Shown here one piece after another: positions 1 through 52,914 of a stretch of DNA of 64,000 nt (the stretch's first letter is position 1; each line of letters opens with the position of its first letter). The stretch covers positions 737,509-801,508 of the forward strand of contig CBDASZ010000001.1 in assembly GCA_965199755.1 (NCBI GenBank). Direction: 5' to 3'. This DNA is from an uncultured candidatus Porisulfidus sp. Its GTDB lineage: Bacteria; Pseudomonadota; Gammaproteobacteria; Poriferisulfidales; Poriferisulfidaceae. A program made the position numbers and the translations under genes. The notes beneath the pieces were generated by a model. That model was given only the letters and a program-made list of their open reading frames with translations, was not told the DNA's origin and ran no database searches.

Positions 1-1
1 C

Positions 2-832
2 GACATCTTCCCGACGCGAAGCGAGGGCGTGCGGCAGATCAGCAGGGCGCTGCAAGGCACTTTGGGCAAGGAGCAGGTGCTGTTTTTCTCATCCGATCTG
101 GAGTTTGTCGACTACCCGGAGCGTCAGGCCGAGACGGTTGGCTCCATGAACTGGTACGCCTCCGCGCATCTGGCTGCGCGTCTGGTCAAGCATGGCATCT
201 TCATTGATGTAGGCAGCACGACCACAGATCTGATTCAGATCAGGGATCATCAGGTGCACATCAGTAGCTATACCGATGCGGAGCGTCTCAAGAGTGGCGA
301 GTTGCTGTATACCGGCGTGGTGCGCACTCCGCTTATGAGTCTGGCACCGCAAGTCGAGATCGACGGACAGCCTTGCAATCTGATGGCGGAGCATTTCGCC
401 ATCATGGCCGATGCCTACAACTTGCTCGGCATGCTGCCGGAAGCCTTGATTCCTTATGACACGCCGGACGGTGACGGCTGCTCCCGCTTCGAGTCCGCGC
501 GTCGCATGGCGCGCATGATCGGACGCGACTGCGAGGAAGATGACGCGCTGGACGAATGGGTCGCGCTGGCGCGAACTTTCGCTGACATGCAATGTGCGCG
601 CATTGTCGAGACCTTGAGTCACGTTAACACCGCCGAGAGTCCGGTGCTGGTCGGAACCGGGACCGGGCGTTTTGTTCTGGAGCGTGTCGCCCGCGAGAGC
701 CAGATGACCTACTACGACATCAACACACTGCTCGACACGCGCGGCATGGTGTCGGGGTCGTTCACGTTGGCGGATTGCCTTCCGGCCTATGCCGTCGCCG
801 AGTTGTTTCGGCGAGGCCATGCGGATCACTGA
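2..832 (+). CDS. ASKHA-fold hydantoinase/oxoprolinase-like protein, 5'-truncated by the window edge. It resembles the H4MPT-linked C1-transfer pathway family.
   Basis: Frame 2 is open back to the window start. The N-terminal 'FIDVGSTTTD' and C-terminal 'LVGTGTGRF' glycine-rich motifs are typical of the acetate/sugar kinase-Hsp70-actin fold. The stop overlaps the pabB start region. The family assignment is from memory and is not certain. Confidence 0.4.
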   Translation, partial: DIFPTRSEGVRQISRALQGTLGKEQVLFFSSDLEFVDYPERQAETVGSMNWYASAHLAARLVKHGIFIDVGSTTTDLIQIRDHQVHISSYTDAERLKSGELLYTGVVRTPLMSLAPQVEIDGQPCNLMAEHFAIMADAYNLLGMLPEALIPYDTPDGDGCSRFESARRMARMIGRDCEEDDALDEWVALARTFADMQCARIVETLSHVNTAESPVLVGTGTGRFVLERVARESQMTYYDINTLLDTRGMVSGSFTLADCLPAYAVAELFRRGHADH

Positions 833-2177
833 ACTTCCCTGGCACGCCGACCCGACGCGCCGGTTTCAACAGTTTGCCGATCAGCCCTGGTCGGTGCTGC
901 TCGACAGTTGCCACGATCAAAGTGGGCAGGGCCGTTTTGATATTTTCGCGGCGGCCCCTTATGCGACCTTCGAGGCGACCGGCTCACAAGCGATTCTGGG
1001 TCGCGGTCAGGAGCGACAGATACTGCGCGGCAATCCGTTCGCGCTTCTGAAGCAGCAACTGGCCCCGATGGGTGAACCAGCACCGGATCTGCCATTTTGT
1101 GGTGGCGCGATTGGCTACTTCAGCTACGAACTGGGACGCACGTGCGTGGAATTGTCGCCAGCACCACCGGGGACACTGCCGTACCCGGAACTGGCAGTCG
1201 GGCTGTATGACTGGGCTGTCATCGGGGATCATCAGCGCCAGCAGTGCTTTCTGGTGTCACAAGGCCGCGCGCATGAAACACAACTGATCTGGGATGAGCT
1301 GGTCGAGAAGTTGTCGGATGAGCGTCCTGCGCCGCCCACTTCTTATCATCTGCGTGAACCGCTACGCAGCAACCTCGATCAGGATGAGTACGGCGAAGCT
1401 TTTACTCAGGTGCGACGGCATATTGAGGCCGGCGACTGCTATCAGGTGAATCTGGCGCAGCGCTTTGCCGCGCCGAGCGAAGGCCGACTGTGGTCGGTGT
1501 ACCCTGAAGTGCGTCAGCACAATCCCGCGCCGTTTTCTGCTTACTTCCACCACCCGCAAGTGGAAATCGCCAGCGCCTCGCCGGAACGCTTCCTGCAGGT
1601 ACGCGACGGCCGTGTCGAGACCCGACCGATCAAAGGCACGATGCGCCGCATCCCCGGACAAGAGTCGGAGCACTGCGCGCAGTTGCGCGATAGCGTCAAG
1701 GATCGTGCGGAGAATCTGATGATCGTCGACCTGCTGCGCAACGATCTGGGCAAAAATTGCATGCAGGGCAGTGTGACGGTGCCGGAATTGTTCACGGTCG
1801 AGAGTTTCGCCACGGTGCATCATCTGGTCAGCACGATCACCGGAGAGGTGCGTCCGGGACGGCACGCTCTGGAAGTATTGGAGGGCTGCTTCCCCGGGGG
1901 CTCGATCACCGGTGCGCCCAAGCGTTGCGTCATGGAGATCATCGAGCGTCTGGAGAGAACGCCGCGTGGCATTTATTGTGGCAGCCTTGCGTACATCGGT
2001 CTCGACGGCAATATGGACAGCAGCATCGCCATTCGCACGATTGTGCAAGCGAATCAGGAAAGCAGCCTGCATGCCGGCGGCGGCTTGACACACGGCTCGC
2101 AAATGGATGCCGAGTATCAGGAGTGTCTCGACAAGGCGGCCGCCATGCGCACGGTACTGGAGTCCTGCCTCTGTTAA
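789..2177 (+). CDS. pabB: Aminodeoxychorismate synthase component I (PabB; anthranilate synthase component I family).
   Basis: A 462-aa ORF with chorismate-binding-enzyme motifs 'GDCYQVNLAQRF', 'RPIKGT', 'AENLMIVDLLRNDL', 'GGSITGAPKRCVMEIIERLE' and 'RGIYCGSLAYIGLDGNMDSSIAIRT'. An alternative start at ATG 819 would overlap the upstream stop by 14 nt. Confidence 0.88.
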   Translation: MPSPSCFGEAMRITELPWHADPTRRFQQFADQPWSVLLDSCHDQSGQGRFDIFAAAPYATFEATGSQAILGRGQERQILRGNPFALLKQQLAPMGEPAPDLPFCGGAIGYFSYELGRTCVELSPAPPGTLPYPELAVGLYDWAVIGDHQRQQCFLVSQGRAHETQLIWDELVEKLSDERPAPPTSYHLREPLRSNLDQDEYGEAFTQVRRHIEAGDCYQVNLAQRFAAPSEGRLWSVYPEVRQHNPAPFSAYFHHPQVEIASASPERFLQVRDGRVETRPIKGTMRRIPGQESEHCAQLRDSVKDRAENLMIVDLLRNDLGKNCMQGSVTVPELFTVESFATVHHLVSTITGEVRPGRHALEVLEGCFPGGSITGAPKRCVMEIIERLERTPRGIYCGSLAYIGLDGNMDSSIAIRTIVQANQESSLHAGGGLTHGSQMDAEYQECLDKAAAMRTVLESCLC

Positions 2178-2207
2178 AATTCAGGAATTACTGCTAGGCG
2201 TGGGACT

Positions 2208-3437
2208 ATGGAACTGGAAATCTACCGTCAAGTGTTGCTGGCCGGATTCATCATCACAGTGATTCTGGGTGCTGTCACTTTCAAGACCAATTTCTGCACT
2301 ATGGGTGCGGTGTCGGATGTCGTCAATATGGGCGACACCGGGCGTCTGCGCGCCTGGGTGCTCGGCATGGCGGTCGCCGTGCTGGGCGTCACGATGTTGG
2401 AATATCTGAGTCTGGCGGACATGGCGTTGACGGCGAGCCCGGAGACGGGTAGGCCGCCTTATCGCGCCGCGGTGTTCCCGTGGCCGCGCTTTGTCCTCGG
2501 CGGGTTGCTGTTCGGCATCGGCATGACGCTGGGGTCAGGATGCGGCAATCGCACCATGGTGCGCATTGGCGGAGGCAACCTGAAGTCCATTCTGGTACTT
2601 CTGGCCATGGGCGTCGCGGGTTATCTGATGATCTTCACCAACTTTGGCTATTACGCATTCCTGCAGTGGATGGAACCGGTGTATGTGAATCTGCAGACGC
2701 TGGGCATCGCTGACCAGTCACTCGGCGCGGTGGCGAGCGGAGTGCTGGGACTGCCTGCCGCATCGGCGTCCTTGGGCGTGGGTCTGTTGGTGACGGTAAT
2801 CATGCTGGTGTGGATCTTGCGCGATCAGAGTTTCTTTCAGAATCGTGACAACGTGCTAGCCGGCGTAGTGCTGGGGCTGTGTGTGGCCGCGGCTTGGTAT
2901 GTTACCGCCGGCATGATGGGACAGGAATTGATTGATGAAGTCAGTTTTCTGGAAGGGGAAGAGCAGCCGTACGGTGTCGGCGCGCAGGCATTGACCTTTG
3001 TGCAGCCGGCGGCAGTGTTGATTCGCTACCTTGAGACCGGGCTGGCGTCGCGCTTTATCAGTTTCTCGTTGGTCGCAGGTGGTGGCGTGATTCTTGGCGC
3101 GTTTTTGTACGCGGTGCTGGCGCGCAAGTTTCGCTGGGAATGGTTCCAGTCGTTCAGTGATGTGGTGCGCCATGTGATCGGAGGGATGCTGATGGGCTTG
3201 GGCGGTGTGCTGTCGATCGGCTGCACGATTGGGCAGGCGGTCTCCGGCGTCTCGACGCTGGCATTGGGTTCGTTCATCACGTTTTTCTCGATTTATATCG
3301 GCAGTGCATTGACGATGAAGGTGCAGTACTACAAAATGGTCTACGAAGATGAGGCCACCGTTTTGGGCGCGTTGCTAACCGGCATGGCCGATCTGCGCCT
3401 GTTGCCCCAGAAATGGCGCCGCTACGAAGCGATTTGA
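2208..3437 (+). CDS. YeeE/YedE family inner-membrane transporter for sulfur-containing compounds (thiosulfate-uptake-like, two-domain).
   Basis: 409 aa and very hydrophobic. The N half has 'TNFCTMGAVSD' and the C half has 'LSIGCTIGQAVSG'; these are the duplicated conserved-Cys motifs of YeeE/YedE. Confidence 0.8.
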   Translation: MELEIYRQVLLAGFIITVILGAVTFKTNFCTMGAVSDVVNMGDTGRLRAWVLGMAVAVLGVTMLEYLSLADMALTASPETGRPPYRAAVFPWPRFVLGGLLFGIGMTLGSGCGNRTMVRIGGGNLKSILVLLAMGVAGYLMIFTNFGYYAFLQWMEPVYVNLQTLGIADQSLGAVASGVLGLPAASASLGVGLLVTVIMLVWILRDQSFFQNRDNVLAGVVLGLCVAAAWYVTAGMMGQELIDEVSFLEGEEQPYGVGAQALTFVQPAAVLIRYLETGLASRFISFSLVAGGGVILGAFLYAVLARKFRWEWFQSFSDVVRHVIGGMLMGLGGVLSIGCTIGQAVSGVSTLALGSFITFFSIYIGSALTMKVQYYKMVYEDEATVLGALLTGMADLRLLPQKWRRYEAI

Positions 3438-3446
3438 AAGAGATAC

Positions 3447-3523
3447 GGGTCGTTAGCTCAGTCAGGTAGAGCATCGGACTTTTAATCCGCTGGTCGCAGG
3501 TTCGATCCCTGCACGACCCACCA
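3447..3523 (+). tRNA. tRNA-Lys (anticodon UUU).
   Basis: Cloverleaf 'gggtcgt..agctcagtcaggtagagc..tcgga-ctTTTaa-tccgc..ggttcgatccc..acgaccc-a-cca'. It is close to E. coli tRNA-Lys. Confidence 0.9.
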
Positions 3524-3658
3524 TCATGCCGTATGAAATGAGAGGCATTGCCGGTTGCCGCGAAGGGCGGTTTTGCCCGCGCATTGTGTATAATCCGAGA
3601 ACGGCATAACCTATGGCGTATAGGCCGTTGGAGAGACAAAGCAATTCAGGAGATTGCC

Positions 3659-5959
3659 ATGACGCAAGTATCAAAAATAAAAGTCCCTGAAGGACATTCC
3701 CTGCATCATGTGTGTTGCCCACATGACTGCCCCGACACCTGCTCCATGCTGGTGATGCGCGACGACAGTACCGGTCGTGCCGTGCGGGTTCAGGGCGATC
3801 CCACGCATCCGGTTACACGCGGGTATCTGTGCAACAAGGTCAACCACTATCTGGACCTGGTCTACAACGACAATCGGGTTCTGTATCCCCACAAACGAGT
3901 AGGCCCGAAAGGCCCCGGTGCCAAGTTCGAGCGCATCAGCTGGGACGAGGCGCTGGATATGGTCACCGACAATTTCAAGGAAGTCGTCGAAGAGTACGGC
4001 GCGGAAGCCGTACAACCGTATTCCTATTCCGGCACGCTTGGCATGCTGGGTTATTGGACCATGGATCAGCGTTTCTGGAACAAGATGGGCGCGGCGCGGC
4101 TGGAACAGTCGATTTGCATATATGCCGCCATGTGGGCGGGCATCCACACGTATGGCGTAGCGAACGGGCCGGCCATTCAGGATGCCGCGACCGCTGCGGA
4201 ACTGATTGTGCTGTGGGGGGCCAATCTGGTCAGCACCGGCGTGCATGCGATTCCGTTTATCCGTGAGGCGCAGGAACGTGGAGCCAAACTGGTGGTCATC
4301 GATCCGCGCATGACGCGCACCACCATGATGGCCGACTGGCACATTCAGCCGAAGCCGGGCACGGATGCCGCGCTGGCGCTGGGTGCGATGAAAATCATTG
4401 TTGATCGCGGGTTGCATGACGTTGAATTTCTGAAAGAGCAAACCCATGGCTGGGAAGAGTTCCTTGAGAAGAAACTCCCTGAATATCCGGTGGAGCGCGT
4501 GGCTGAAATTACGGGCTTGTCCGAGGAAGATATCGAGAAGTTCGCGTTGCTGTACGCCAGCACCAAGAAATCATTCATCCGCGCCAACTACGGCCTGAAC
4601 CGGCATCAGAACTCCGGGCAGACTTGTCGTGCGGTTCTGGTGATGCCTTGCATTACTGGCGCGTGGCGTGAGCCTTTAGGCGGTGCTGCCTTCGGCACGC
4701 TGGAGGAGATGTGGCTGAGTTTCAATATGGAGAAACTGCAGCGGCAGGCCGAACTCGGCGATCGTGCGAACAGCCGCCGCATCAATATGGTGCAGGTGGG
4801 ACGAGCGCTGGCGGACAACATCGGCGACACCGACGGCGAGCAAATGGACCCGCCGATCAAATCGCTGTTTGTCTACAACTCGGACCCCGCAAACTGCGCG
4901 CCCAACTCCGGCAATGTACGCCGAGGGCTGATGCGCGATGATCTGTTCGTGGCGGTGCATGAGACTTTCTGGACCGACACCTGCAACTATGCCGATGTGG
5001 TGCTGCCGGCTGACACGCAGCTGGAGCGTATGGATCTGCATGCGGCGTACGGGCACTGGCACTTCAATTTCAACAAGCCGGTGATTGACCCACTGGGCGA
5101 GAGTTGCCCGAACACGGAATTGTTCCGGCGTCTGGCGCAGAAGATGGGCTACGTTGAAGATACCGGAGATGCCTTCACCCAGACCGATGAGGAAATCATC
5201 CGCGACATCATGGTCAATGATGATGGCTTCAACCCGCTGATGGAAGGCGTGGAGTACGAGGATCTGGTCGAGAACGGCTGGGCGCGTGCGAACGACACCT
5301 CCGAACGCCGGGACTTCATGAAGATTGGTTGGCCCACGACCAGTAAGAAGATCGAGATCTACAGCGAGGCGCTGAAAGATCTGGGACAGGATCCGCTGCC
5401 GACCTACAACCCGGAAATCAACGGACAGGAAGATCCGAAACGTGAGAAGTATCCGATTCAGGTATTGAGTTCGGCTGCGCATTACTTCATTGGGGATTCC
5501 TTCCAGTCGGTACCGAGACTGCAGGCGATGATGTCACGGCCGACCGTGGAACTCAGCGTCGGCGATGCTCGCGAACGCGGCATTGAAGATGGCGATCTGG
5601 TACGGCTGTTCAATGATCAGGGCGAGACTTTCTGCTACGCCGTGGTTATTGAGGGGCTGCTGGATGGCGTGTGCGCGACCCAGAAGCAATTCAAGGGCAG
5701 CAACACCCCAGGCGGCATCAATGTCAATGTCTTGAATACGGAGATACTGACGGACTTCGGTGAAAGCCCGACGTTTTATTCGTGTCTCGCAGAGATCGAG
5801 AAAGCCGATGATGAGGCAGTGCGCAAGGCGCGTCTTGATGAGTTGGGCGGTGCCGAGGGCTACATTGCCGCATGGCGCAACAAAAACCGAGATGCGGACG
5901 CCACAGACGAACAAATTCTTGAATATGCCAAACAAGAACATCCAGGAGTGTTTAACTGA
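3659..5959 (+). CDS. Molybdopterin (bis-PGD) oxidoreductase of the MopB superfamily. It is cytoplasmic, has an N-terminal Fe-S Cys cluster, and its substrate is unknown.
   Basis: The SD 'caggag' lies 7 nt upstream of ATG 3659. The N-terminal 'CCPHDCPDTCSM' Cys motif is like those of formate-dehydrogenase/NasA-type enzymes. There is no Tat signal. The size (766 aa) and overall features resemble uncharacterised YoaE/YyaE-like Mo enzymes. The longer ORF from 3548 is rejected because it overlaps the promoter/leader region. Confidence 0.75.
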   Translation: MTQVSKIKVPEGHSLHHVCCPHDCPDTCSMLVMRDDSTGRAVRVQGDPTHPVTRGYLCNKVNHYLDLVYNDNRVLYPHKRVGPKGPGAKFERISWDEALDMVTDNFKEVVEEYGAEAVQPYSYSGTLGMLGYWTMDQRFWNKMGAARLEQSICIYAAMWAGIHTYGVANGPAIQDAATAAELIVLWGANLVSTGVHAIPFIREAQERGAKLVVIDPRMTRTTMMADWHIQPKPGTDAALALGAMKIIVDRGLHDVEFLKEQTHGWEEFLEKKLPEYPVERVAEITGLSEEDIEKFALLYASTKKSFIRANYGLNRHQNSGQTCRAVLVMPCITGAWREPLGGAAFGTLEEMWLSFNMEKLQRQAELGDRANSRRINMVQVGRALADNIGDTDGEQMDPPIKSLFVYNSDPANCAPNSGNVRRGLMRDDLFVAVHETFWTDTCNYADVVLPADTQLERMDLHAAYGHWHFNFNKPVIDPLGESCPNTELFRRLAQKMGYVEDTGDAFTQTDEEIIRDIMVNDDGFNPLMEGVEYEDLVENGWARANDTSERRDFMKIGWPTTSKKIEIYSEALKDLGQDPLPTYNPEINGQEDPKREKYPIQVLSSAAHYFIGDSFQSVPRLQAMMSRPTVELSVGDARERGIEDGDLVRLFNDQGETFCYAVVIEGLLDGVCATQKQFKGSNTPGGINVNVLNTEILTDFGESPTFYSCLAEIEKADDEAVRKARLDELGGAEGYIAAWRNKNRDADATDEQILEYAKQEHPGVFN

Positions 5960-7074
5960 TGATGCAGGACAATCTTGAGCAATACCGCGATCCGCTGAGC
6001 CTGCCGGTTCCTGATCGCCTCATCCAGACCCTGCGGGTTGGCTTCAGTGAAGGAGAGATCACCCGTATCCGAAACCTGACGCATGACACCTATGAGGTGG
6101 TCGTCACGGTAGAGGAGCCGCGGCTCGCTGGCAACGCCGGTCAATTCTGGACCTTGCGCGTGCCGGGTATTCGCAAGCCACGCCCGTACTCGTTCGCGCG
6201 AGCGCCGGAATCAGAGGCTCCGGGGGAACATACCTTTTTTATCCGGCTGGTGCCGGGGGGTGAGTTGTCCGAATGGCTCGAAGGCGGCAGTCGCGTCGGA
6301 GAGAAAGTCACCTTGTCCGGTCCGCTTGGCAAGTTTGGGCTGGACCCGTCAATGGACGACATGGTGTGCATCGCGGGCGGCTCTGGCATGAGCGCGGTGT
6401 TCTCGGTGATCGAACATGCGGCCAATCTTCAGGTGCCGCGGAATTGTTATTTCTTCTACGGTGCCCGCGCCCGACAGGATCTGTATCTGGAAGAGGAAAT
6501 CGAGGCGCTGAAGCAGCGCTGGCACCCGGATTACACGCTGGAATTTGTGCAAGTGCTCAGTGAGGAGCCGGAAGATTCCGACTGGGATGGTGGTCGCGGC
6601 ATGGTGACCGATTACGTCAAGCAGAACTACCTGGACTCCGGGAAGCTGGACATCAATGAGATCAAGGCTTATTTCTGCGGCCCGCCGCCGATGATTGATG
6701 CGGGCATTGCGGTGCTGCAGGATGCCGGACTCAGCAAGGCCAACATCTATTACGACAAGTTCGAGGACGCTCGCTCACCCTTGCCGGTGATCGACAACAC
6801 CAAGTGCGTGTTGTGCGATGAGTGCTTGATGGTCAAGCCTGTGAGCAACTGCATTGTGGAAGTGTCGCAACTGCGCGGCAATGGCGATGCGGCGGGCACG
6901 ATGGAGTTCGAGCGCGTTGAGCCGTCTGCGACTTCGGGGCTGTACTACAACACGCTGTATATCAATGAGCGTGAGTGCATCCGGTGTTATGCGTGCGTGG
7001 AAATCTGCCCGGCCGAGGCGATATCACCAGACTTCAAGTCGACGCCGACGACCCTGGCCAAAGTCATCAAATAA
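5959..7074 (+). CDS. FNR-like FAD/NAD(P)H-binding oxidoreductase with a C-terminal di-cluster ([3Fe-4S]/[4Fe-4S]) ferredoxin domain. It is the probable electron-transfer partner of the Mo enzyme.
   Basis: Its start overlaps the upstream stop (ATGA). It has an 'RPYSFA' flavin motif and a 'GGSGMS' NAD(P) motif. The C-terminus has 'CVLCDECLMVKP' (missing the 4th Cys) and 'CIRCYACVEICP'. Confidence 0.75.
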   Translation: MMQDNLEQYRDPLSLPVPDRLIQTLRVGFSEGEITRIRNLTHDTYEVVVTVEEPRLAGNAGQFWTLRVPGIRKPRPYSFARAPESEAPGEHTFFIRLVPGGELSEWLEGGSRVGEKVTLSGPLGKFGLDPSMDDMVCIAGGSGMSAVFSVIEHAANLQVPRNCYFFYGARARQDLYLEEEIEALKQRWHPDYTLEFVQVLSEEPEDSDWDGGRGMVTDYVKQNYLDSGKLDINEIKAYFCGPPPMIDAGIAVLQDAGLSKANIYYDKFEDARSPLPVIDNTKCVLCDECLMVKPVSNCIVEVSQLRGNGDAAGTMEFERVEPSATSGLYYNTLYINERECIRCYACVEICPAEAISPDFKSTPTTLAKVIK

Positions 7075-7076
7075 AG

Positions 7077-7862
7077 CTAAGCCAGCGACTCCAGACGCTT
7101 TAGCATCGCTTCCATAATTTTAGGTGAGGCGGCAATGATGTTGCCGCTCTCCAACGGCGAGTCATCGCTTTCGATCTGACGCACGAGGGCACCGGATTCT
7201 TGCGCCAGCACCATGCCGGCGGCAATGTCCCAAGGGTTCAGGTCGAACTCCCAGAAACCATCAAAACGTCCCGCTGCGACGTAAGCCAGGTCCAGCGCTG
7301 CAGAGCCGGCCCGGCGAATGCCGGCGGTATCGGGGACCAGAACCTTCAAGGTTTCCAGATATTGGGCGAGATCGGAGCCTTCACGAAAAGGGAAGCCAGT
7401 TGCCAGTAGCGCGTCGTGCAGACTGTTGGCTTGCCGGGCGCGGATGCGATGGCCATTCAACTTCGCGCCGCGGCCGCGCATGGCGGTGAACAGTTCCTGC
7501 TTGAACGGGTCGTAGACCACGCCCAGCATCAGTGTGTCATGGTGCTGCAAGGCAATAGATACGGCATAGTGCGGAATGCCAAACAGAAAATTGGTGGTGC
7601 CGTCGAGAGGATCCACCAGCCATTGATACTCTGAATCTCGCAGCGCATCCGGGGAAGTCTCCTCGGTGCGAATGCCGTAGTCCGGATAAGCGCGCTGCAG
7701 GCAGGTGACGATGACTTGCTCCGCCTCACGATCGACACTGGTGACGAAGTCATGCGCGCCTTTGCGCGCGACCTCAATGCGGTCGGTGAACTTGTGATGG
7801 CGAATAATGACCTTGCCGGCATCCTGTGCGGCACTCACGGCGATGTTCAGCAGCGCTTCCAT
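7077..7862 (-). CDS. suhB: Inositol monophosphatase family protein SuhB.
   Basis: 261 aa. It carries the IMPase motifs 'WLVDPLDGTTNF' and 'DYGIRTEE' plus 'AAGMVLAQESGA'. Confidence 0.88.
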   Translation of the reverse strand: MEALLNIAVSAAQDAGKVIIRHHKFTDRIEVARKGAHDFVTSVDREAEQVIVTCLQRAYPDYGIRTEETSPDALRDSEYQWLVDPLDGTTNFLFGIPHYAVSIALQHHDTLMLGVVYDPFKQELFTAMRGRGAKLNGHRIRARQANSLHDALLATGFPFREGSDLAQYLETLKVLVPDTAGIRRAGSAALDLAYVAAGRFDGFWEFDLNPWDIAAGMVLAQESGALVRQIESDDSPLESGNIIAASPKIMEAMLKRLESLA

Positions 7863-7987
7863 GGCAAGGTGGCCGGTGTTGTGGCGTGCTGATTTCAGAC
7901 GGTAATTCGGAGGCGATTGTAACAGGCGGCCTGATGGCTACGCGATGCTTGCCTACAATAGGCAGGTTTGAGTGAGGAAGATCGACG

Positions 7988-8704
7988 ATGACACGGCCCG
8001 GTCACATGATGACACAAAGCCTGCTGGGACTGTGTGTTGTGGCGGAACTGTGCTATTGGCAATGGGATGTGTTGCAAGAAGTATATTTCAGCGCCCTGAT
8101 GATGCCGTGGACCTGGATCGTTGTTGGAGTGCTCGCAATCGTATTAGTGATTGCCTTGGTGCATGGGCTGTTTCTGTTGTACTCCTATATTCGGGAGGAC
8201 GCGGCGATTGATGCTTTCACAGAGCAGTTGGACTTCACGTTGACTGCGGCGGGGCTTGCCAGCATTCGCAAAAGCCTGATCGTGTCGCGCTATCGGGCAG
8301 TACAGCAAAGCCGGGGAAGTTCTGATTGTCTGGCCGTACTGTCTTCCTTGTTATGGCGCCAAGAGAAGACACGCGCGGAGCTGTTGTTGCTGGCGCGCAG
8401 AGTGATGCTGGGGGCGGGTTTGATCGGTGCGGTGGCAGAGTTCGCTGTATTGATGTATGGGTTCAACACGGGAGAGTTGATGAGCGCGCTGGACTGGAGG
8501 TTGTGGGGCACCTTGCTGGTTCACGACATACAAATGGTGGTCTCATTCGCGGCGATTGCTTTGGCCGGCTATCTGGTGTTGTTGCTGTTGGATTCCCGCG
8601 TGACGAGGAGTCGAGAATACGTTTGTCAGCGTATTGATGAGATGAGTGTGCGGCAGCTGGTGCCGAGGCTGTCTGAGCGGTCTTCCGCGACGGAAGGTCA
8701 ATAA
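7988..8704 (+). CDS. Hypothetical 3-TM inner-membrane protein. Its topology is reminiscent of the MotA/TolQ/ExbB family, but there is no partner gene.
   Basis: The SD 'gaggaag' lies 8 nt upstream. It has one N-terminal TM helix, a cytoplasmic loop of about 60 aa, and two C-terminal TM helices. I did not recognise any conserved motif. Confidence 0.4.
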   Translation: MTRPGHMMTQSLLGLCVVAELCYWQWDVLQEVYFSALMMPWTWIVVGVLAIVLVIALVHGLFLLYSYIREDAAIDAFTEQLDFTLTAAGLASIRKSLIVSRYRAVQQSRGSSDCLAVLSSLLWRQEKTRAELLLLARRVMLGAGLIGAVAEFAVLMYGFNTGELMSALDWRLWGTLLVHDIQMVVSFAAIALAGYLVLLLLDSRVTRSREYVCQRIDEMSVRQLVPRLSERSSATEGQ

Positions 8705-8846
8705 TCTGCCTGGAGGCGGCCTCTGAGTGGGCATCCTTGAATGGTATTGATATCATTCCGCCACTGCTTCTGCTATAAATCCCATTTATTTTCATTAAGA
8801 TAAATACTTTTATTAAGATTTGCGCCATTGCATAAGGGAGTATCGG

Positions 8847-8960
8847 ATGTTTAAAAGATATGTTCCCCATTCGCAACCAGTATCTGCTGCCGTAATGAGC
8901 CTCCTGGTTCAAGTAACACGCAAGACATTCAAGGAGAGAAGAAGCGCATTCGTAGTTTAA
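8847..8960 (+). CDS. Small ORF (37 aa) inside a low-GC intergenic islet; hypothetical.
   Basis: A strong SD 'aagggag' lies 7 nt upstream of the ATG. Its composition is atypical for this genome. It has no recognisable family and may not be expressed. Confidence 0.2.
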   Translation: MFKRYVPHSQPVSAAVMSLLVQVTRKTFKERRSAFVV

Positions 8961-9099
8961 AAACTTACGATATGGAAGCCGCAGTTTGTTAAAATGCCTG
9001 ACCGAACAGGCTGGAATTTTAGGCGCTCCTCGTTGTCCAAAATAGAGCAAAAGCACCAAGCCTCTGCATTCTGACGAAATAACGCGATCATCAATCCCT

Positions 9100-14785: not shown

Positions 14786-17089
14786 GTGAAGAAGAAATCC
14801 TCTGCCCCGCGCGCCAAAAAAGCCCCGGAAGAAGCCGTCCTTTCTCCCATATTGCGAGAAGGAGTGTTGCTGCTGATGGCGGCCATATCAGTCTTTTTGC
14901 TGGTCGCGCTGGTGAGTTTCGATGGCAATGATCCGAGTTGGTGGGATACGGGCGACAACGCGACGGTGATGAACGCGGCCGGGCATGTTGGTGCCAATGT
15001 CGCCGTGGCCTTGTTCTTTTTGATCGGCCATCTGGCCTATCTGCTACCCTTGATGCTGGCGTACCACGGCTGGCTGATTTATCGGCAGAGAAAAATCTTC
15101 ACAGGAACCCGCAATCGTCCGAGCTGGCATCTGGCCACGCTGCACTGGGGCGGTTTTCTGATGACCCTGTCGTCCATCTGCGCTTTGGCGAGCATGCACG
15201 TGGTGCTCAACGATCCCATGCCAACGGGCAGCGGTGGCGTTCTGGGACGGGAGATCGCGTACGGTTTTGAGGCTGCCTTCAGCCGCATCGGAGGGACAGT
15301 GTTGCTGCTGGCGGGGCTGTTTAGCGGAATCACGGTGTGGACAGGATTTTCTTGGCTGGCGGCGACCGATACGGTGGGCCGCTGGACGATGGGACTGGGC
15401 GAGTGGCTGTACAGGATAGGCGAGTGGATTCACGATTATTGGAAAGGCCGGCGCAGTCGGCAGCAACGTCAGGAGCGTCTGGTTGAGCGGCAGAAAAAGA
15501 AAAGCAGACAGACGAAAGTTCGGGTCGAGCCCAAAGTGGAAGTCAAACCGGACAAGGTGCGCGAGGTCAAAGAGAAGCAGCCGGAGTTGTTCAAGGTTGA
15601 AGCTGGCGGGTTGCCGCCAGTGCACTTATTGGATTCTCCTTCCACAGAGGGTCATGGTTATTCGGATGATGAAATTGAACACATGAAAACGCAGATCGAG
15701 GTCAAACTTGAAGAGTTTGGCATCGGCGCTGAGGTGGTCAATGTAATTCGCGGCCCCGTGGTGACACGCTTTGAGCTGGAACCGGATGCCGGGGTACGCG
15801 GCGGCAAGATCAGCAGTTCCGCCAAAGATCTGGCACGTGCCTTGTCGGTGGTGAGTGTGCGCGTGGTGGAAGTGGTGGAAGGGAAATCTGTGATCGGCGT
15901 GGAAGTGCCCAACGAGGACCGCGAAATTGTCAGAATCAGCGAAATTCTGGGATCCGAGGCGTTCAACCGTTCGAGTTCCCTGCTGACTATGGTGCTCGGC
16001 AAGGCGATTGATGGTGAAGCGATGGTCGGGGATCTCGCCAAAATGCCGCACTTGCTGGTCGCGGGCACCACCGGCTCCGGCAAGTCGGTGGCCATCAATA
16101 CGATTCTGACCAGCCTGCTGTACAAAGCGACGCCGACGCAACTGCGCCTGATTCTGGTCGATCCGAAAATGCTGGAGTTGAACATCTACGATGGCATTCC
16201 GCATTTGCTGACGCCGGTGATTACGGACATGAAGCGCGCCGCGCGCGCCTTGCAATGGTGCGTGATTGAAATGGAGCGCCGCTACCGGCTGATGTCGGAG
16301 TTGGGCGTGCGCAACTTAAGTGGCTACAACAAAAAAATCGAAGAGGCGGGCGGCAGTCTGCGCGATCCCACGTATGACGAAGCCACGACAGAAGAAGATC
16401 AGGCCGAAGTACCGACGCTGGAGTTGCTGCCGTACGTTGCGGTGGTGATTGATGAGTTTGCCGACATGATCATGGTGGTGGGCAAGGCCGTGGAAGAGTA
16501 CATCATCCGCCTTGCGCAGAAAGCGCGGGCGGCGGGCATTCACCTAATTCTGGCTACCCAGCGCCCGACCCGTGATGTCATCACGGGATTGATCAAGTCC
16601 AACATTCCGTCGCGCATTGCGTTCAGTGTGGCGTCCAGCATGGATTCGCGGGTCATTCTGGATCAGAACGGTGCGGAAAGTTTATTGGGACAAGGGGATA
16701 TGCTGTTCATGGACAGCGGTTCCGCTGTGCCATCCCGGATACATGGCGCGTTCATTTCCGAAGACGAAGTCAGGGAGGTTGTGCAGCATCTGCACCAGCA
16801 CGGCGGCGAACCGCACTACCTGGAGGCGGTTACTGAAGAGCAGGAAACCGGTCCGGCTTATAGCGGTGGTGGGCAGGATGATGATGCCGATGATCTTTAC
16901 CAGGAAGGTGTTGAGGTGGTGCTACGCGATGAGAAAGCATCGATTTCTTATCTGCAGCGTCGTTTGAAAATCGGCTACAACCGTGCGGCCAGCATGATCG
17001 AGAGAATGGAAGAGGAGGGGATCGTCAGCCCGGTGCAGCCTAATGGGGGACGCGAGATTTTGGGGAGTTCGGGGGACGACGGATCTTGA
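14786..17089 (+). CDS. ftsK: DNA translocase FtsK.
   Basis: GTG start. It has an N-terminal multi-TM region, a Pro/Gln/Lys-rich linker, a motor domain with 'GTTGSGKS', and a C-terminal gamma domain. Confidence 0.92.
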   Translation: MKKKSSAPRAKKAPEEAVLSPILREGVLLLMAAISVFLLVALVSFDGNDPSWWDTGDNATVMNAAGHVGANVAVALFFLIGHLAYLLPLMLAYHGWLIYRQRKIFTGTRNRPSWHLATLHWGGFLMTLSSICALASMHVVLNDPMPTGSGGVLGREIAYGFEAAFSRIGGTVLLLAGLFSGITVWTGFSWLAATDTVGRWTMGLGEWLYRIGEWIHDYWKGRRSRQQRQERLVERQKKKSRQTKVRVEPKVEVKPDKVREVKEKQPELFKVEAGGLPPVHLLDSPSTEGHGYSDDEIEHMKTQIEVKLEEFGIGAEVVNVIRGPVVTRFELEPDAGVRGGKISSSAKDLARALSVVSVRVVEVVEGKSVIGVEVPNEDREIVRISEILGSEAFNRSSSLLTMVLGKAIDGEAMVGDLAKMPHLLVAGTTGSGKSVAINTILTSLLYKATPTQLRLILVDPKMLELNIYDGIPHLLTPVITDMKRAARALQWCVIEMERRYRLMSELGVRNLSGYNKKIEEAGGSLRDPTYDEATTEEDQAEVPTLELLPYVAVVIDEFADMIMVVGKAVEEYIIRLAQKARAAGIHLILATQRPTRDVITGLIKSNIPSRIAFSVASSMDSRVILDQNGAESLLGQGDMLFMDSGSAVPSRIHGAFISEDEVREVVQHLHQHGGEPHYLEAVTEEQETGPAYSGGGQDDDADDLYQEGVEVVLRDEKASISYLQRRLKIGYNRAASMIERMEEEGIVSPVQPNGGREILGSSGDDGS

Positions 17090-17715
17090 TGCGTCGTGGC
17101 CGCGCTTGCGTGCTGGCGAGCCTGATTCTGGGAGTCGCTGCGACCGGTGCGTACGCTGAGGAAGTACTACATCAGTTCTTCGCGCAAACCCAAACCATAC
17201 AAGGTGAATTCACCCAGGTGGTGACCTACCCCAGTGGCGAAGTGTATGCCACGGGCAACGGGAAAATACGTTTGCTGCGACCTGATTTTCTGTACTGGGA
17301 TTATCAAGGTGAAGAGCCTTTGACGCTGGTCTCAGACGGCAAAAACTTCTGGACTTATGATCCGCTGCTAATGCAGGCGACCGTCACACCGCTGGATGAG
17401 GCGCTGGGACGTTCACCGCTGGCGATGCTGGTTCGTGGGCGAGGCTGGGAAGATCTGTTCGCCGTGCAGCGCGCGTGGTTTGAAAGTGACACCGAGTGGG
17501 TCGCATTGCGCCCGCGCGAGGGAAATGATACTACGAGCGCCATTGAGATCGGATTTCGCGCCGGGCAACTGCATCGGATTCATTTCACGGACGCACTGGG
17601 CCAGCGCGTTGAGATCATGTTTCAGAATGTCACCAGCAACCAGTCGATGCAGCCGGAGGATTTTCACTACACGCCTCCCGCCGGGACTGATATTCTTGGT
17701 CAAGCCAATCCATGA
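17089..17715 (+). CDS. lolA: Outer-membrane lipoprotein carrier protein LolA.
   Basis: Signal peptide 'MRRGRACVLASLILGVAATGAYA'. It has a 1-nt overlap with the ftsK stop. ftsK-lolA-rarA is a conserved synteny. Confidence 0.85.
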   Translation: MRRGRACVLASLILGVAATGAYAEEVLHQFFAQTQTIQGEFTQVVTYPSGEVYATGNGKIRLLRPDFLYWDYQGEEPLTLVSDGKNFWTYDPLLMQATVTPLDEALGRSPLAMLVRGRGWEDLFAVQRAWFESDTEWVALRPREGNDTTSAIEIGFRAGQLHRIHFTDALGQRVEIMFQNVTSNQSMQPEDFHYTPPAGTDILGQANP

Positions 17716-26311: not shown

Positions 26312-27598
26312 TTACGCGAACATATCGGCGACGATGTTGTTGTACCAGCTGTATGCATACTGTACTTCGCGCTTGAGCATCTCGTCAGAGGCATCCGTCG
26401 GCGTTAGGCCGCCGGCCACCTTGTCGATTTTGCTCTTGTCCGCATTGAGGCGGTAGACCGCGGCGACCGAGATACCGTAGTCCGGCGCGATCAGGCTGTA
26501 GCACGTGTTGACGTAGGATGGCGTGCCTGGTTCGGCCTCGGCCAGCAGGGCGACCACTGCTGCGGCGCAGACTTTGGCCTCCGAGTTCGCGGCGTAGCCG
26601 GATTTCGGCAAGCCGGTGGCGATGCTGGCATCACCGACCACATGTACGCCCGGCACCAGTGTCGACTCGAAGGTGTCCAAGTGAATGGGACACCAGCCGG
26701 ACTCATCGGTCAGGCCGGCCGCTTGCGCGATTTTGCCGGCGCTTTGCGGCGGGATGATGTTGATCACCGCACCTTCGTGAGTATCATCAAACTGCGTGGT
26801 CACGGTCATGGCTCCGGTATCAACCTCGGCAATGCCGCCGGCGGTTTCAGCGCCTGGCACCCACTGGATCATGCCGTCATAGCGTCGCTCCCAGCCTTGC
26901 GTGAACAGTCCCATCTTGGAGAACTTGTCCTTGGCGTCGAGCACCAGAATCTTGGATTTGGGCTTGTGTTCGCTGAAGTAATGCGCAACCTGACAGATCC
27001 GCTCATAAGGTCCGGGGGGACAGCGGAACGGATTGCCCGGCGGGCAGATGATAAAGGTGCCGCCTTCGTCCATCGCTTCGAGTTGCGAGCGTAGCAGGGC
27101 GGTTTGCGGTCCGGCCTTCCAGGCATGCGGCATGACTTCGGCCGCGGCTTCGTCATAGCCTTCAATGGCATCATATTTCAGGTCAATGCCGGGGCTGACG
27201 ATCAGACGATCGTAGGCATGGCTGCCGCCGTCGTCGGTGCTCACCGTGCGTGCGTCGGTGTCGACGCCGGTGGCCGTCGCGTGCACCACCTTGATGCCGT
27301 GTGCGGCCAAGCCCTCGTAACCATGGCGAATGGTCTCGATGTTGCGCCCGCCACCAATGACTTCATTGCTCATGAAGCAGGTGTAGTGGTGCGTGTTGGC
27401 TTCGATCAGCGTGACGTTGATGCTGCTGTCAGCCATCTTCACGGATTTGGCGGCTACCGCGCCGCCGGCACCACCGCCGATGACGACGACATTCTTGTTG
27501 CCGCCCAAAGCGATGTGTGGGAAACCGGCCCCCAGTGCGCCGATGGCGGCTGCGCCGCTGGTGGCTTTGAGGAATCCGCGTCGGGTCAATGTAGTCAT
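26312..27598 (-). CDS. fccB: Flavocytochrome c sulfide dehydrogenase, flavoprotein subunit.
   Basis: Tat signal '[21 protein letters not shown]' and FAD motif '[15 protein letters not shown]'. It is co-oriented downstream of the dihaem cytochrome subunit. Confidence 0.85.
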
Positions 27599-27617
27599 GA
27601 TGAGGGTTCCTCCGCGC

Positions 27618-28310
27618 TTACTGTTGGCTGGCGTAATAGTGGATGAGGTCGGTCAGACCGTCCTCACCCGTGGTTTCGTGGACGTCCTTGAGTCGGGACC
27701 TCATTTTCTTGGGCATGCCGCGCGTGCCGCTATGGAAGTCGGCCAGCGAATATTGCAAATAAGGCACCCACTGTCCGGCCAGTGGCACCATGTCATCCAG
27801 TGTGGAGCGGCCGCCGTCTTCATGGCACTTTTCGCAATTATCGGCGTGCAAGGCTTCACCGGAACTGACGCGGTCGGCATCGAACTCCTGGGTTGCCGCC
27901 ACCATGCTCATACCAGCGAAGTAATCGGCCATGGCTTTGATCTCATCGAGCGTGTAGCCGCCGGCGATGCGTCCCATGATGGTGCCCTGGCGTTGAAAGA
28001 TACTGACGTCTTCCAGTGTGGCGTCGCCGTCGACAATCGCTTCGGCTGCATCCAGATCTGCGGCGTGCTTGTAGGAAAGCATGGCTCCGATGAAGTAAGT
28101 GGCTGGCAGGCCTGCTAGCGAGGGGGTAGCCGGGCCGATGCTGTTGCCGCTTGGGCCATGACAGGCGACACAGGCTCCGGTCAGCATGGACACCGATGCC
28201 ATAGGTGCGGTGTCTTCCGCATGCAGCATGGGTGAACATACAAGTGCGGCGGCCAACGTAAGACGGGCGAAAAATTGCAGTTGCATCAGTCCCTCCTGAT
28301 TGGGGTACAT
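27618..28310 (-). CDS. fccA: Flavocytochrome c sulfide dehydrogenase, dihaem cytochrome c subunit.
   Basis: Signal peptide; two CxxCH motifs ('CVACHG' and 'CEKCHEDGG'). Confidence 0.8.
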
Positions 28311-28463: not shown

Positions 28464-28539
28464 GCGGGAATAGCTCAGTTGGTAGAGCGTAACCTTGCCA
28501 AGGTTAAGGTCGCCGGTTCGAACCCGGTTTCCCGCTCCA
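28464..28539 (+). tRNA. tRNA-Gly (anticodon GCC).
   Basis: 'gcgggaatagctcagttggtagagc...ccttGCCaagg...ggttcgaacccgg-tttcccgc-t-cca' is near-identical to E. coli glyW. Confidence 0.92.
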
Positions 28540-28556
28540 AACGCGAGCGACTCCCT

Positions 28557-28630
28557 GGCTGAGTGGCAGAGTGGTTATGCAGCGGCCTGCAAAGCCGTGG
28601 ACGCCGGTTCGATTCCGACCTCAGCCTCCA
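28557..28630 (+). tRNA. tRNA-Cys (anticodon GCA).
   Basis: 'ggctgagtggcagagtggttatgcagcggcctGCAaagccg...ggttcgattccgacctcagcc-t-cca'. Confidence 0.9.
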
Positions 28631-51555: not shown

Positions 51556-52914
51556 TTATAGCAACATAGGAGGATCTTCCATGTGATCCACGACGGCTTT
51601 GCCAAAGCCGGAAGTTGTCACCAGAGTCGCCCCTGGGATCAACTCCTGCATGTGTCGTTCGACTTCTTGGCGAGTCGCCGCACCGCTCGCAGCGGTCGAC
51701 AAGCCCGCGCGTACGCGCGCCAAGTCATAGGTCAGGAACTTGTTGGAGATCGCCCCGGATATGCCCTTGATCACCAGATCGGCCGCTTCCACCCAGCCCA
51801 TGTAGCGTAGCATCATCTCGGCCGACAGAATAATGGAGCCCGGATTGACGCGGTTCTTGCCGGCGTATTTGGGCGCGGATCCGTGGGTGGCCTCGAACAC
51901 GGCGACCGCATCGGCCATGTTGGCACCCGGCGCGATGCCGATGCCGCCGACCTGTGCGGCCAGCGCATCCGAAATATAGTCGCCATTCAGATTCAGTGTG
52001 GCAATCACATCGTAATCCGCCGGCTTCAGCAGGATCTGCTGCAGAAAGTTATCAGCGATGACGTCCTTGATGACAATAGTGCTGCCATCGTTCGGATTGC
52101 GAATTTGATGCCAAGGGCCGTCGCCAATTATTTCGGCACCAAACTCCTCGGCCGCCATCTCGTAACCCCAATGACAAAACGCGCCCTCAGTGTGCTTCAT
52201 AATGTTGCCTTTGTGCACCAGCGACACGGAGCGGCGATGGTTCTCAAGCGCATAACGAATGGCCTTGCGAATCAAGCGGCACGATCCTTCACGCGAGACA
52301 GGCTTGATGCCGATGCCGGAAGAGCCGGGAAAGCGGATCTGGGTGACCTGCATCTGCTTTTGCAGAAACGCAATGACTTCCTTCGCCTCCGCGCTGTCGC
52401 TCGCCCATTCGATGCCGGCGTATATGTCCTCGGTGTTTTCACGAAACACCACCATGTCCGTGGTGTCGGAAGATTTCAGCGGTGTCGGGGTGCCGCGAAA
52501 ATAACGAATCGGACGCACACAGGCGTACAGATCCATCTTCTGCCGAATGGAAACATTCAGTGAGCGAATGCCTTCACCGACAGGGGTGGTGAGGGGCCCT
52601 TTGATAGAGATAACATGATCCTGCATGACCTGCAAGGTCTCATCCGGCAGCCAGGAGCCATCGCGGTACAGCTTGTTCGCTTTCTCTCCGGCGTAGACCT
52701 CCATCCAGCAGATCTTTCGTTTGCCGTCGTACGCCGAGCGTACCGCTTCATTGACCACCTGGCGCATGACCGGGGTGACGTCAATGCCAATGCCGTCGCC
52801 TTCAATAAACGGGATAATGGGATGGTCCGGGACCTTAACTTCTCCGTCCGAGCTAACATTAATGACTTCTCCCTCGCTGGGAGGGAGAATATGCTCATAC
52901 TTGGTCGGGGGCAT
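51556..52914 (-). CDS. icd: Isocitrate dehydrogenase (NADP-dependent, dimeric type).
   Basis: '[27 protein letters not shown]' matches the E. coli Icd N-terminus '[23 protein letters not shown]'. Its C-terminus 'FGKAVVDHM' resembles the E. coli Icd C-terminus 'FGDAIIENM'. It is about 30 aa longer than E. coli Icd. Confidence 0.9.

Follow-up and report, generated by a model that had tools for sequence, protein, structure and literature searches.

A conserved pair of a MopB-family molybdoenzyme and a putative NAD(P)H-dependent flavin/iron-sulfur reductase, and its probable independence from an adjacent YeeE gene

What might a cytoplasmic molybdoenzyme with a reductase of its own do in a marine sulfur oxidizer, and does the transporter gene beside it tell us anything about its substrate? 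The question is raised by a 64,000-nucleotide (nt) stretch of DNA from an uncultured candidatus Porisulfidus sp. (contig CBDASZ010000001.1 of assembly GCA_965199755.1, positions 737,509 to 801,508), here called the window. Within it, a gene for a MopB-family oxidoreductase of the molybdenum/tungsten-bis-pyranopterin guanine dinucleotide (Mo/W-bisPGD) type is followed directly by a gene for a protein that joins an FNR-type flavin module to an iron-sulfur (Fe-S) domain, and a YeeE-family transporter gene lies upstream. The original prediction, made from the sequence alone, read the pair as a soluble NAD(P)H-linked molybdoenzyme and supposed that it might act on an imported sulfur oxyanion or N-oxide. 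Its observations were confirmed in part and were largely correct; its interpretation is partly supported, in that the architectural inference holds but the sulfur-transport connection does not. The reading that we favor, and consider likely, is a soluble, cytoplasmic, two-subunit molybdoenzyme fed by NAD(P)H and encoded by a two-gene operon (3659 to 7074) with its own promoter. The features of the locus are as follows.

2208 to 3437, + strand: YeeE/YedE-family (PF04143) membrane protein, 409 amino acids (aa) (Pfam, full-length match with an E value of 2.8e-54; open reading frame [ORF])
3447 to 3523, + strand: tRNA-Lys, anticodon UUU (ARAGORN; Rfam tRNA model, 71.9 bits)
3584 to 3594, + strand: conserved element TTGTGTATAAT, putative promoter of the MopB operon, with the -10 hexamer TATAAT at 3589 to 3594
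3601 to 3629, + strand: inverted repeat, or hairpin of the 5′ untranslated region (UTR), ACGGC...GCCGT around CCTAT...ATAGG (RNAfold)
3659 to 5959, + strand: MopB (Mo/W-bisPGD) oxidoreductase, catalytic subunit, 766 aa (Pfam, invariant Cys)
5959 to 7074, + strand: FNR-type FAD/NAD(P)H and Fe-S electron-transfer subunit, 371 aa (Pfam, invariant motifs)

The YeeE, tRNA-Lys, MopB, and FNR/Fe-S protein genes all lie where they were first placed. The MopB start codon (ATG, 3659) has an AGGAG sequence 6 nt upstream (3648 to 3652), and sequence conservation among relatives starts exactly at this codon. The overlap of the two genes, described earlier as ATGA, is read as TGATG (TGA at 5957 to 5959, ATG at 5959 to 5961); this 1-nt overlap is also kept in close relatives. 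Because exact look-ups of the window's MopB and reductase proteins gave no record, genomic context was taken from relatives. The sequence-cluster names are generic “molybdopterin-dependent oxidoreductase” labels only.

The MopB/reductase pair is a true, strongly conserved unit. A genome scan, limited to one genome per species, returned 80 loci with a MopB at least 70% identical to that of the window, nearly all of them in metagenome-assembled genomes (MAGs) named Ca. Porisulfidus, Oxydemutatoraceae, Piscirickettsiaceae, Thiotrichales, or Chromatiales; the closest relatives of the window are MAGs of sponge sulfur oxidizers. The FNR/Fe-S gene is directly 3′ of MopB in 74 of the 76 genome loci with room for it, and both exceptions are second MopB copies in MAGs that also hold a complete pair. 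A search of metagenomes with the reductase alignment as its seed gave a further 80 loci, and MopB lies directly 5′ of the reductase in 55 of the 58 with room. The cultured alphaproteobacterium Hyphomicrobium methylovorum (GCA_013626205.1, QHJE01000001.1) carries the pair as well (L081:7751-11125), with a MopB 70% identical to the window's, as do further marine lineages. The pair is abundant in marine metagenomes and is kept in genomes of 1.6 to 1.9 Mb. The second MopB copies mentioned above (L061 and L075, in the same MAGs as L049 and L047) sit in another context, without an FNR/Fe-S partner.

Pfam and motifs agree on the predicted layout of the 371-aa reductase, an FNR-type FAD/NAD(P)H domain with a C-terminal Fe-S domain. 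FAD_binding_6 (PF00970), NAD_binding_1 (PF00175), and Fer4 were all matched; the FNR module spans approximately residues 28 to 270, and a ferredoxin-like domain is fused to its C-terminal side. In AlphaFold models, the FNR module has a predicted local distance difference test score (pLDDT) of 80 to 95. Three motifs, R75-x-Y77-S78, G140-GSGMSA (GGSGMSA), and C240-GPPPM, are invariant among 20 homologs, and so are all eight Cys of C283-x2-C286-x2-C289-x8-C298 and C340-x2-C343-x2-C346-x3-C350-P. The Fe-S domain had been called a 7Fe-type ferredoxin. In the 7Fe ([3Fe-4S][4Fe-4S]) pattern, the second Cys of the first motif is missing (CxxAxxC...CP); because all eight Cys are invariant here, the motif of this domain is that of a 2x[4Fe-4S] dicluster ferredoxin, not of a 7Fe one. 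The best NCBIfam and PDB relatives of the reductase are of the BenC/MmoC type (140 bits to the BenC and MmoC models; PDB 1tvc and 1krh), and its FNR module is nearest to those of the NADH-oxidizing reductases BenC, MmoC, and NqrF. The BenC and MmoC matches start at model positions 105 to 108, past the [2Fe-2S] domain of those proteins, and the reductase has no match to Fer2 (plant-type [2Fe-2S]). Among plasmid-encoded proteins, none covers more than 70% of the reductase, and none has the full architecture.

H. methylovorum has a second FNR/2x[4Fe-4S] paralog (L081:11528-12712, 394 aa) approximately 400 nt downstream of the first. No MopB accompanies this paralog, and the next gene encodes a VWA-domain protein; 5 to 10 kb beyond it, on the opposite strand, is a sulfide-detoxification-like cluster (TauE, Lactamase_B, and FCSD).

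The catalytic subunit has three Pfam domains in canonical order, each scoring higher than its gathering threshold: PF04879 (Molybdop_Fe4S4, 38.7 bits), PF00384 (Molybdopterin, 140.1 bits), and PF01568 (Molydop_binding, 47.7 bits). The CCPHDCPDTC motif singled out in the original prediction is at residues 19 to 28, and a twin-arginine translocation (Tat) motif is absent both from the 766-aa reading and from a longer reading that starts at TTG-3548, as had been stated for the former. Five Cys residues (C20, C24, C28, C58, and C153) are invariant in 46 aligned relatives. The first four make up the N-terminal [4Fe-4S] site (C20-x3-C24-x3-C28...C58), while the C153 column holds the ligand Cys of NasA, NapA, FdhF, PhsA, and acetylene hydratase and the ligand Ser of DmsA; Cys153 is therefore the predicted metal ligand. 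From such motifs we infer the cofactor occupancy of both subunits. The cluster motif is Cx3Cx3C, compared with Cx2Cx3C in Nas, Nap, and Fdh, and the residue after the ligand Cys is Ile, not Met (Nas) or His (Fdh). None of the curated NCBIfam models was matched at its family cut-off: the best score was to dmsA_ynfE (TIGR02166; 254.5 bits versus a cut-off of 777.7), and those to formate dehydrogenase (TIGR01591; 247 versus 666), NasC (NF047855; 208.6 versus 1100), and haloarchaeal NasA (NF041323; 122 versus 1000) were lower. The nearest solved structure is acetylene hydratase (2e7z; E value, 8.7e-55).

We built a bootstrapped neighbor-joining tree of MopB from plasmid-gene references (DmsA, four NasA beside nirB/nirD, NapA, FdhF, ClrA, PhsA, a YdeP-family protein, and NarG), the aligned part of acetylene hydratase, and representatives of clusters at 50% identity. 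A clade of the four NasA, NapA, FdhF, and the YdeP-family protein (bootstrap 100) excludes the window's MopB. Its own orthologue group (bootstrap 100) is inside a radiation (bootstrap 87 and 79) of uncharacterized proteins alone; acetylene hydratase, PhsA, and DmsA fall outside this radiation, with acetylene hydratase paired with PhsA (bootstrap 79). Identity is 22 to 25% to the NasA proteins, 30% to acetylene hydratase, and 38 to 40% to the nearest relatives outside the orthologue group. NasC, NasA, and NarB are handled as one family in the literature (PMC10100899). Because tree placement, the Cx3Cx3C motif, and the Cys-Ile pair all differ from Nas, Nap, and Fdh, we assign this MopB to a clade with no assigned function, in keeping with the original prediction and apart from NasA/NarB. 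The wider radiation appears to be functionally diverse, since a member on a plasmid of Streptomyces sp. NBC_01216 (L109; 37.5% identical to the window's MopB) has no reductase partner and sits in a context that resembles a small-molecule biosynthetic cluster (dapF, a 2OG-Fe dioxygenase, an aldo/keto reductase, an aminotransferase, and an ornithine cyclodeaminase).

How would such a pair work? The missing Tat signal, the domains of both subunits, and the conserved pairing agree with the predicted soluble Mo-bisPGD enzyme and its dedicated NAD(P)H-type flavin/Fe-S protein. Transcribed from a promoter of its own, the operon at 3659 to 7074 would yield a reductase whose FAD, judging by domain content, is reduced by NAD(P)H. 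Electrons would then pass from FAD to the two [4Fe-4S] clusters of the C-terminal domain, on to the N-terminal [4Fe-4S] cluster of MopB, and finally to the Cys153-ligated Mo(W)-bisPGD, where a small cytoplasmic substrate would undergo a two-electron reduction, most likely the abstraction of an oxygen atom. We infer in the same way the contact between the subunits, the class of substrate, and the flow of electrons toward the Mo center. Because the gene neighborhoods of the pair vary, a self-contained assimilatory, scavenging, or detoxifying reductase fits better than a step in a dedicated pathway.

Support for the soluble, NAD(P)H-driven reading comes from plasmid cassettes of Agrobacterium vitis, A. 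tumefaciens, Thioclava, and Methylophaga pinxianii. Their MopB proteins are 35 to 39% identical to the window's and are encoded with a 4Fe-4S ferredoxin of approximately 100 aa, a Pyr_redox_2 FAD reductase of approximately 450 aa, and MoaA or Glp; an AraC regulator precedes the cassette in the three alphaproteobacterial copies. Thus, two non-homologous reductases would form the same chain, from pyridine nucleotide through flavin and ferredoxin to MopB. The one cassette ferredoxin that was scanned against Pfam (L084) also has DUF3470.

Several points weigh against this reading. The direction of electron flow is read solely from the type of the reductase module. Built on an alignment confined to sequences with an identity of 72% or more, the AlphaFold model of MopB is poor (mean pLDDT 54.8); in the reductase, the Fe-S domain is not confidently modeled either (pLDDT of 35 to 50). 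The tree is distance based and draws on a limited set of references that is without NarB, ArrA, TtrA, PsrA, and SoeA, and its deep nodes are weak (bootstrap 22 to 35). A literature search found no characterization of this MopB clade. The unpartnered second MopB copies are 70 to 71% identical to the window's MopB. Finally, several lineages have a co-oriented transporter gene immediately before the pair (for YeeE, a GPH-like MFS protein, or a Liv-type ABC system), so an imported substrate may matter after all.

The operon's promoter was also part of the original prediction, which described an extended -10 promoter, tgtgtataat, at 3585 to 3594. The sequence is there, and the hexamer TATAAT is perfect, but the extension is not canonical: TG dinucleotides are found at -16/-15 and -14/-13, one base away from the canonical -15/-14, and the pattern TGnTAnAAT has no match. 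A sigma-70 promoter scan did not list the element at 3584 to 3594 because it lacks a -35 match. The conservation of the element is more telling. Of 14 relatives with a MopB at least 83% identical to the window's, 13 carry GTGTATAAT 59 to 74 nt upstream of the ATG, in spacers that have otherwise diverged; among them is L009, where the pair has no YeeE. Of 63 more distant relatives, a single one has this sequence. Its retention in diverged spacers, even without YeeE, points to an independent promoter, and we take it as the putative promoter of the MopB operon.

RNAfold places a hairpin at the same spot in most of the close relatives' spacers, with stems of differing sequence, and this hairpin after the -10 element could be a 5′ UTR stem-loop or an operator. 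The stems are ACGGC/GCCGT in the window, GAACGGC/GCCGTTC in L001, and GGCAGG/CCTGCC in L009; the position is matched in L001, L003 to L012, L063, L065, L068, and L114. Rfam models, run over window positions 1 to 9000, matched the tRNA alone; neither a Moco (molybdenum cofactor) riboswitch nor any other was found in the 5′ UTR. Visual inspection also showed a GG/GC pattern resembling a sigma-54 site before the -10 element, but we set it aside for its lack of conservation and for its spacing, which is one base off.

The surroundings of the pair say very little about its substrate. Recurrent neighbors vary by lineage and include DinB/TraB, HtpG/Hsp33/dodecin, MFS/Amt, a Liv-type ABC transporter, YeeE, and an unknown 236-aa protein. 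DinB, TraB, glycerate kinase, FabA, and aminopeptidase N were rejected as functional partners because they are housekeeping genes. Neither a Moco biosynthesis gene nor a dedicated sulfur gene is consistently found among the recurrent neighbors. Co-oriented with the reductase gene and 37 to 68 nt past its end, L101/L102 (8210-9415) and 21 metagenome loci encode an ammonium transporter (TIGR00836, 421 bits), and no glnK intervenes.

The ammonium transporter gene is among the observations that would suit a role in nitrogen assimilation, in which the pair would be a new, non-orthologous NAD(P)H-dependent reductase of nitrate, another N-oxyanion, or an N-oxide, that is, an analog of NasC/NasB made from different parts. 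The original prediction had described the pair as built like NasC/NasB. The logic is indeed the same, with a cytoplasmic Cys-ligated MopB, one [4Fe-4S], and an NAD(P)H flavoprotein, but the reductase is not homologous to NasB, so the resemblance is one of logic only. A Liv/Urt-like ABC transporter before the pair in Hyphomicrobium and the retention of the pair in small autotroph genomes would also suit such a role. Nevertheless, we consider it unlikely. The position of MopB outside the Nas/Nap/Fdh clade, its low identity to the four NasA encoded beside nirBD, its NasC and haloarchaeal NasA scores far below the cut-offs, its cluster motif, and the Ile after its ligand Cys all speak against it. 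We also checked for nas/nir genes and found none nearby: neither a nitrite reductase nor a nitrate transporter is found among the recurrent neighbors of approximately 165 loci or in the 64-kb window. The upstream MFS protein is weakly GPH-like, not NarK-like, and the Hyphomicrobium ABC transporter, which is of the Liv type, reaches no urea or nitrate cut-off.

A broader proposal treats the pair as the first of a new class of soluble molybdoenzymes that depend on NAD(P)H and act on an imported small sulfur or nitrogen substrate, with the various upstream transporters as alternative uptake routes. We regard this as improbable. If true, it would describe a molybdoenzyme class widespread in marine sulfur-oxidizing and methylotrophic Proteobacteria, for example, a cytoplasmic thiosulfate/polysulfide or S-/N-oxide reductase that feeds assimilation.

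More specifically, could YeeE and the pair form one functional system, with YeeE bringing thiosulfate or another sulfur oxyanion into the cytoplasm for reduction or oxidation by the NAD(P)H-linked molybdoenzyme? The window has the order YeeE-tRNA-Lys-MopB-reductase, and so do 12 of the 14 close relatives (MopB identity of 83% or more) with enough upstream DNA, although the DNA upstream of YeeE differs among them, with at least four contexts. The order recurs in a second lineage (L135, L140, and L160), where MopB is 71 to 73% and YeeE approximately 51% identical to the window's. The host is presumably a sulfur oxidizer, the Psr/Phs sulfur reductases also use a Cys metal ligand, and a SoxY-like gene is convergent downstream in Porisulfidus-like loci.

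Against this, the transporter itself is not established as a thiosulfate-type one, as first proposed: it scores 73 and 50 bits against TsuA models with cut-offs of 400 and 645, respectively, and is thus not a TsuA equivalog. Its Cys112 and Cys339 align with Cys91 and Cys293 of the Spirochaeta thermophila YeeE, and its C30 falls in the N-terminal helix region, outside the alignment. No small YeeD/TsuB (TusA-like) ORF lies beside 2208 to 3437. The linkage of YeeE to the pair, on which the supposed functional link depended, is confined to the two lineages. Within the fetched flanks, YeeE was found in 0 of 65 other genome loci, and it is upstream in 4 of 57 metagenome loci with a visible upstream neighbor (one Porisulfidus-like locus and the three of the second lineage), compared with 21 for DinB and 14 for the GPH-like MFS gene. 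In the MAG OZ245010.1, YeeE and the pair are approximately 143 kb apart.

YeeE keeps company of its own. It ends a collinear block, tolQ-(tolR)-tolA-tolB-pal-cpoB-queE-queC-yeeE-tRNA-Lys, as identified by Pfam matches of the flanks. The tRNA-Lys gene, which begins 10 nt past the YeeE stop codon in the window, comes after YeeE in each of the 12 close genome relatives with a YeeE gene, in L114, L135, L140, and L160, and also in L104 and L106, where there is no MopB nearby. Likewise, queC precedes YeeE without the pair nearby in L104 (with tRNA-Lys) and L107/L108, and in Leucothrix pacifica, recX and YeeE are followed by two tRNA-Lys genes. In the window, the tRNA gene and the conserved promoter element separate YeeE from MopB. 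Breaks occur on both sides of YeeE, and the tRNA-MopB junction itself is broken: L009 and L063 have no YeeE before the pair, and in L011, 2 kb of DNA is inserted behind the tRNA. Genes for amt, M48 peptidase, and ilvBNC are linked to the pair as strongly as YeeE is within the collinear frame. Thus, YeeE and tRNA-Lys belong to a different, older syntenic block than the pair, YeeE is probably a neighbor inherited through shared gene order and not a functional partner of the operon, and we find it quite unlikely that the two act as one sulfur-oxyanion system. The adjacency of YeeE is no ground for annotating this MopB as a sulfur-compound reductase.

The position next to tRNA-Lys varies among lineages. 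In MFS-type loci, the order is queC-tRNA-Lys-MFS-MopB-reductase-amt, with a weakly GPH-like MFS gene after tRNA-Lys and upstream of the pair (L102:3236-4605, L174, and L183), and in L140 (4289-5659), L135, and L160, YeeE comes before tRNA-Lys in the same queC...MopB-reductase-amt frame. Because YeeE or MFS alternate in one frame, the tRNA-Lys region appears to be a site of gene turnover. A genomic island at tRNA-Lys was considered and not adopted; no integrase was seen, and the G+C content is 0.58 to 0.59, compared with 0.54 to 0.60 for the window. In a Porisulfidus MAG (L010), two IS605 OrfB/TnpB-like genes with a Cas12f1-like TNB domain (6474-7679 and 16232-17437) flank the YeeE-MopB region.

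Finally, the enzyme could run in the other direction, oxidizing formate, sulfite, or arsenite with NAD(P)+ as acceptor, or it could be a non-redox enzyme like acetylene hydratase whose partner keeps the metal reduced. NAD-linked MopB dehydrogenases do exist, and acetylene hydratase, a non-redox enzyme without a reductase partner, is the best PDB match and has Cys-Ile at the ligand position, as the window's MopB does. Both versions are quite unlikely in our view, since acetylene hydratase groups with PhsA outside the radiation and its Cx2C-D motif is absent here, the His that follows the ligand in Fdh is replaced by Ile, the BenC/MmoC-type FNR modules are NADH oxidizers in all characterized matches, and a strictly conserved, coupled reductase would exceed what an activating helper should need. 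MopB families are tabulated in PMC10100899. Three specific identities were rejected: a DmsA/YnfE-type S-/N-oxide or selenate reductase (no Tat signal, Cys where DmsA has Ser, a score below the cut-off, and an FNR/Fe-S partner in place of a DmsB/DmsC-type one), an FdhF-type formate dehydrogenase (Cys-Ile instead of Cys-His, a score below the cut-off, and an Fdh reference inside the excluding clade), and acetylene hydratase itself (no C-x2-C-D in MopB, and the grouping of acetylene hydratase with PhsA).

The wider window is consistent with the sulfur-oxidizer context that was first proposed. At 26312 to 28310 on the minus strand, it encodes an FCSD flavoprotein and a dihaem-like cytochrome c (fccAB-like), the only clear sulfur-oxidation genes of the window, and its relatives are MAGs of sponge sulfur oxidizers. 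Genes for tRNA-Gly and tRNA-Cys (28464 to 28630) lie beside the fccAB-like genes. The SoxY-like gene of the relatives (L003:13481-13942, minus strand, with equivalents in 7 other Porisulfidus-like loci) stands convergent downstream of the reductase as a lone gene, and SoxZ was not noted next to it; its product has a PF13501 match and reaches 118.8 of the 125 bits that TIGR04488 requires. The window has a SuhB-like inositol-monophosphatase gene (7077 to 7862) in that place. On the minus strand, an isocitrate lyase-family gene (52939 to 54243) adjoins an isocitrate/isopropylmalate dehydrogenase-family gene (51556 to 52914); relatives of this isocitrate lyase-bearing genome are described as autotrophic sulfur oxidizers. 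The other annotated genes of the window are housekeeping genes, and a few ORFs match no family. Among the latter, the ORFs at 49582 to 50994 (plus strand, 470 aa), which comes after a ZnuABC-type transporter operon, and at 7988 to 8704 (plus strand, 238 aa) have no Pfam match.

Why does the substrate of this pair matter? MopB enzymes drive much of the microbial chemistry of N, S, As, Se, and Cl, and large parts of the MopB tree are without an assigned reaction. The 70% identity between the MopB of a gammaproteobacterial sponge-symbiont relative and that of the alphaproteobacterial Hyphomicrobium is a mark of strong conservation. Naming the substrate would add a reaction to the metabolism of marine sulfur oxidizers and methylotrophs, and it would allow annotation of thousands of “molybdopterin-dependent oxidoreductase” entries.

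Among the closest known systems, the assimilatory nitrate reductases (NasC/NasB of Bacillus, NasA/NasC of Klebsiella) resemble the pair in their overall plan: a cytoplasmic MopB with one N-terminal [4Fe-4S] and a Cys ligand, fed with NAD(P)H through a dedicated flavin/Fe-S protein encoded alongside. They differ in sequence (22 to 25% identity, Cx2Cx3C versus Cx3Cx3C, and a clade that leaves out the window's MopB), in the partner, which is a Pyr_redox_2-type flavoprotein (compare the Ralstonia nas locus) where ours has the FNR fold with 2x[4Fe-4S], and in setting, with nirB/nirD beside the NasA references and no nirBD or nitrate transporter near the window's pair. Acetylene hydratase of Pelobacter acetylenicus (2e7z) is likewise a cytoplasmic, monomer-type MopB with one [4Fe-4S] and a Cys-Ile ligand. 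However, it is approximately 30% identical, its motif is C-QS-C-D-IN-C, in which the Asp after the second cluster Cys is catalytic, compared with C-PHD-C-PDT-C in the window, and the window's MopB is almost always paired with a reductase.

The AraC/MopB/ferredoxin/Pyr_redox_2/MoaA cassette is the nearest relative by sequence outside the orthologue group, at 35 to 39% identity. Its MopB also carries a Cx3Cx3C motif, which reads CPHDCPDTC in Agrobacterium and CPLDCPDTC in Thioclava, and electrons would again run from NAD(P)H through ferredoxin to MopB. In the cassette, electron transfer and catalysis are divided among three separate proteins, the reductase is non-homologous, and genes for an AraC regulator and for Moco biosynthesis are included; it too is uncharacterized. 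The BenC, MmoC, and AntC reductases have a homologous FAD and NAD(P)H module with the RxYS, GGxGxx, and CGPP motifs; theirs carries an N-terminal [2Fe-2S] and serves oxygenases, whereas the window's reductase has its eight-Cys dicluster at the C terminus and a MopB as its partner. The YeeE/TsuA proteins of S. thermophila and E. coli share full-length PF04143 with the window's YeeE, and two of the three functional Cys align, but the window's protein is distant (E value of 2e-9 to the solved protein), approximately 50 to 70 residues longer, and without YeeD/TusA. None of the characterized MopB families matched here was found paired with an FNR plus 2x[4Fe-4S] subunit. In all, the pair is a widespread and uncharacterized form of NAD(P)H-linked MopB system, and its electron-input subunit is of a new kind.

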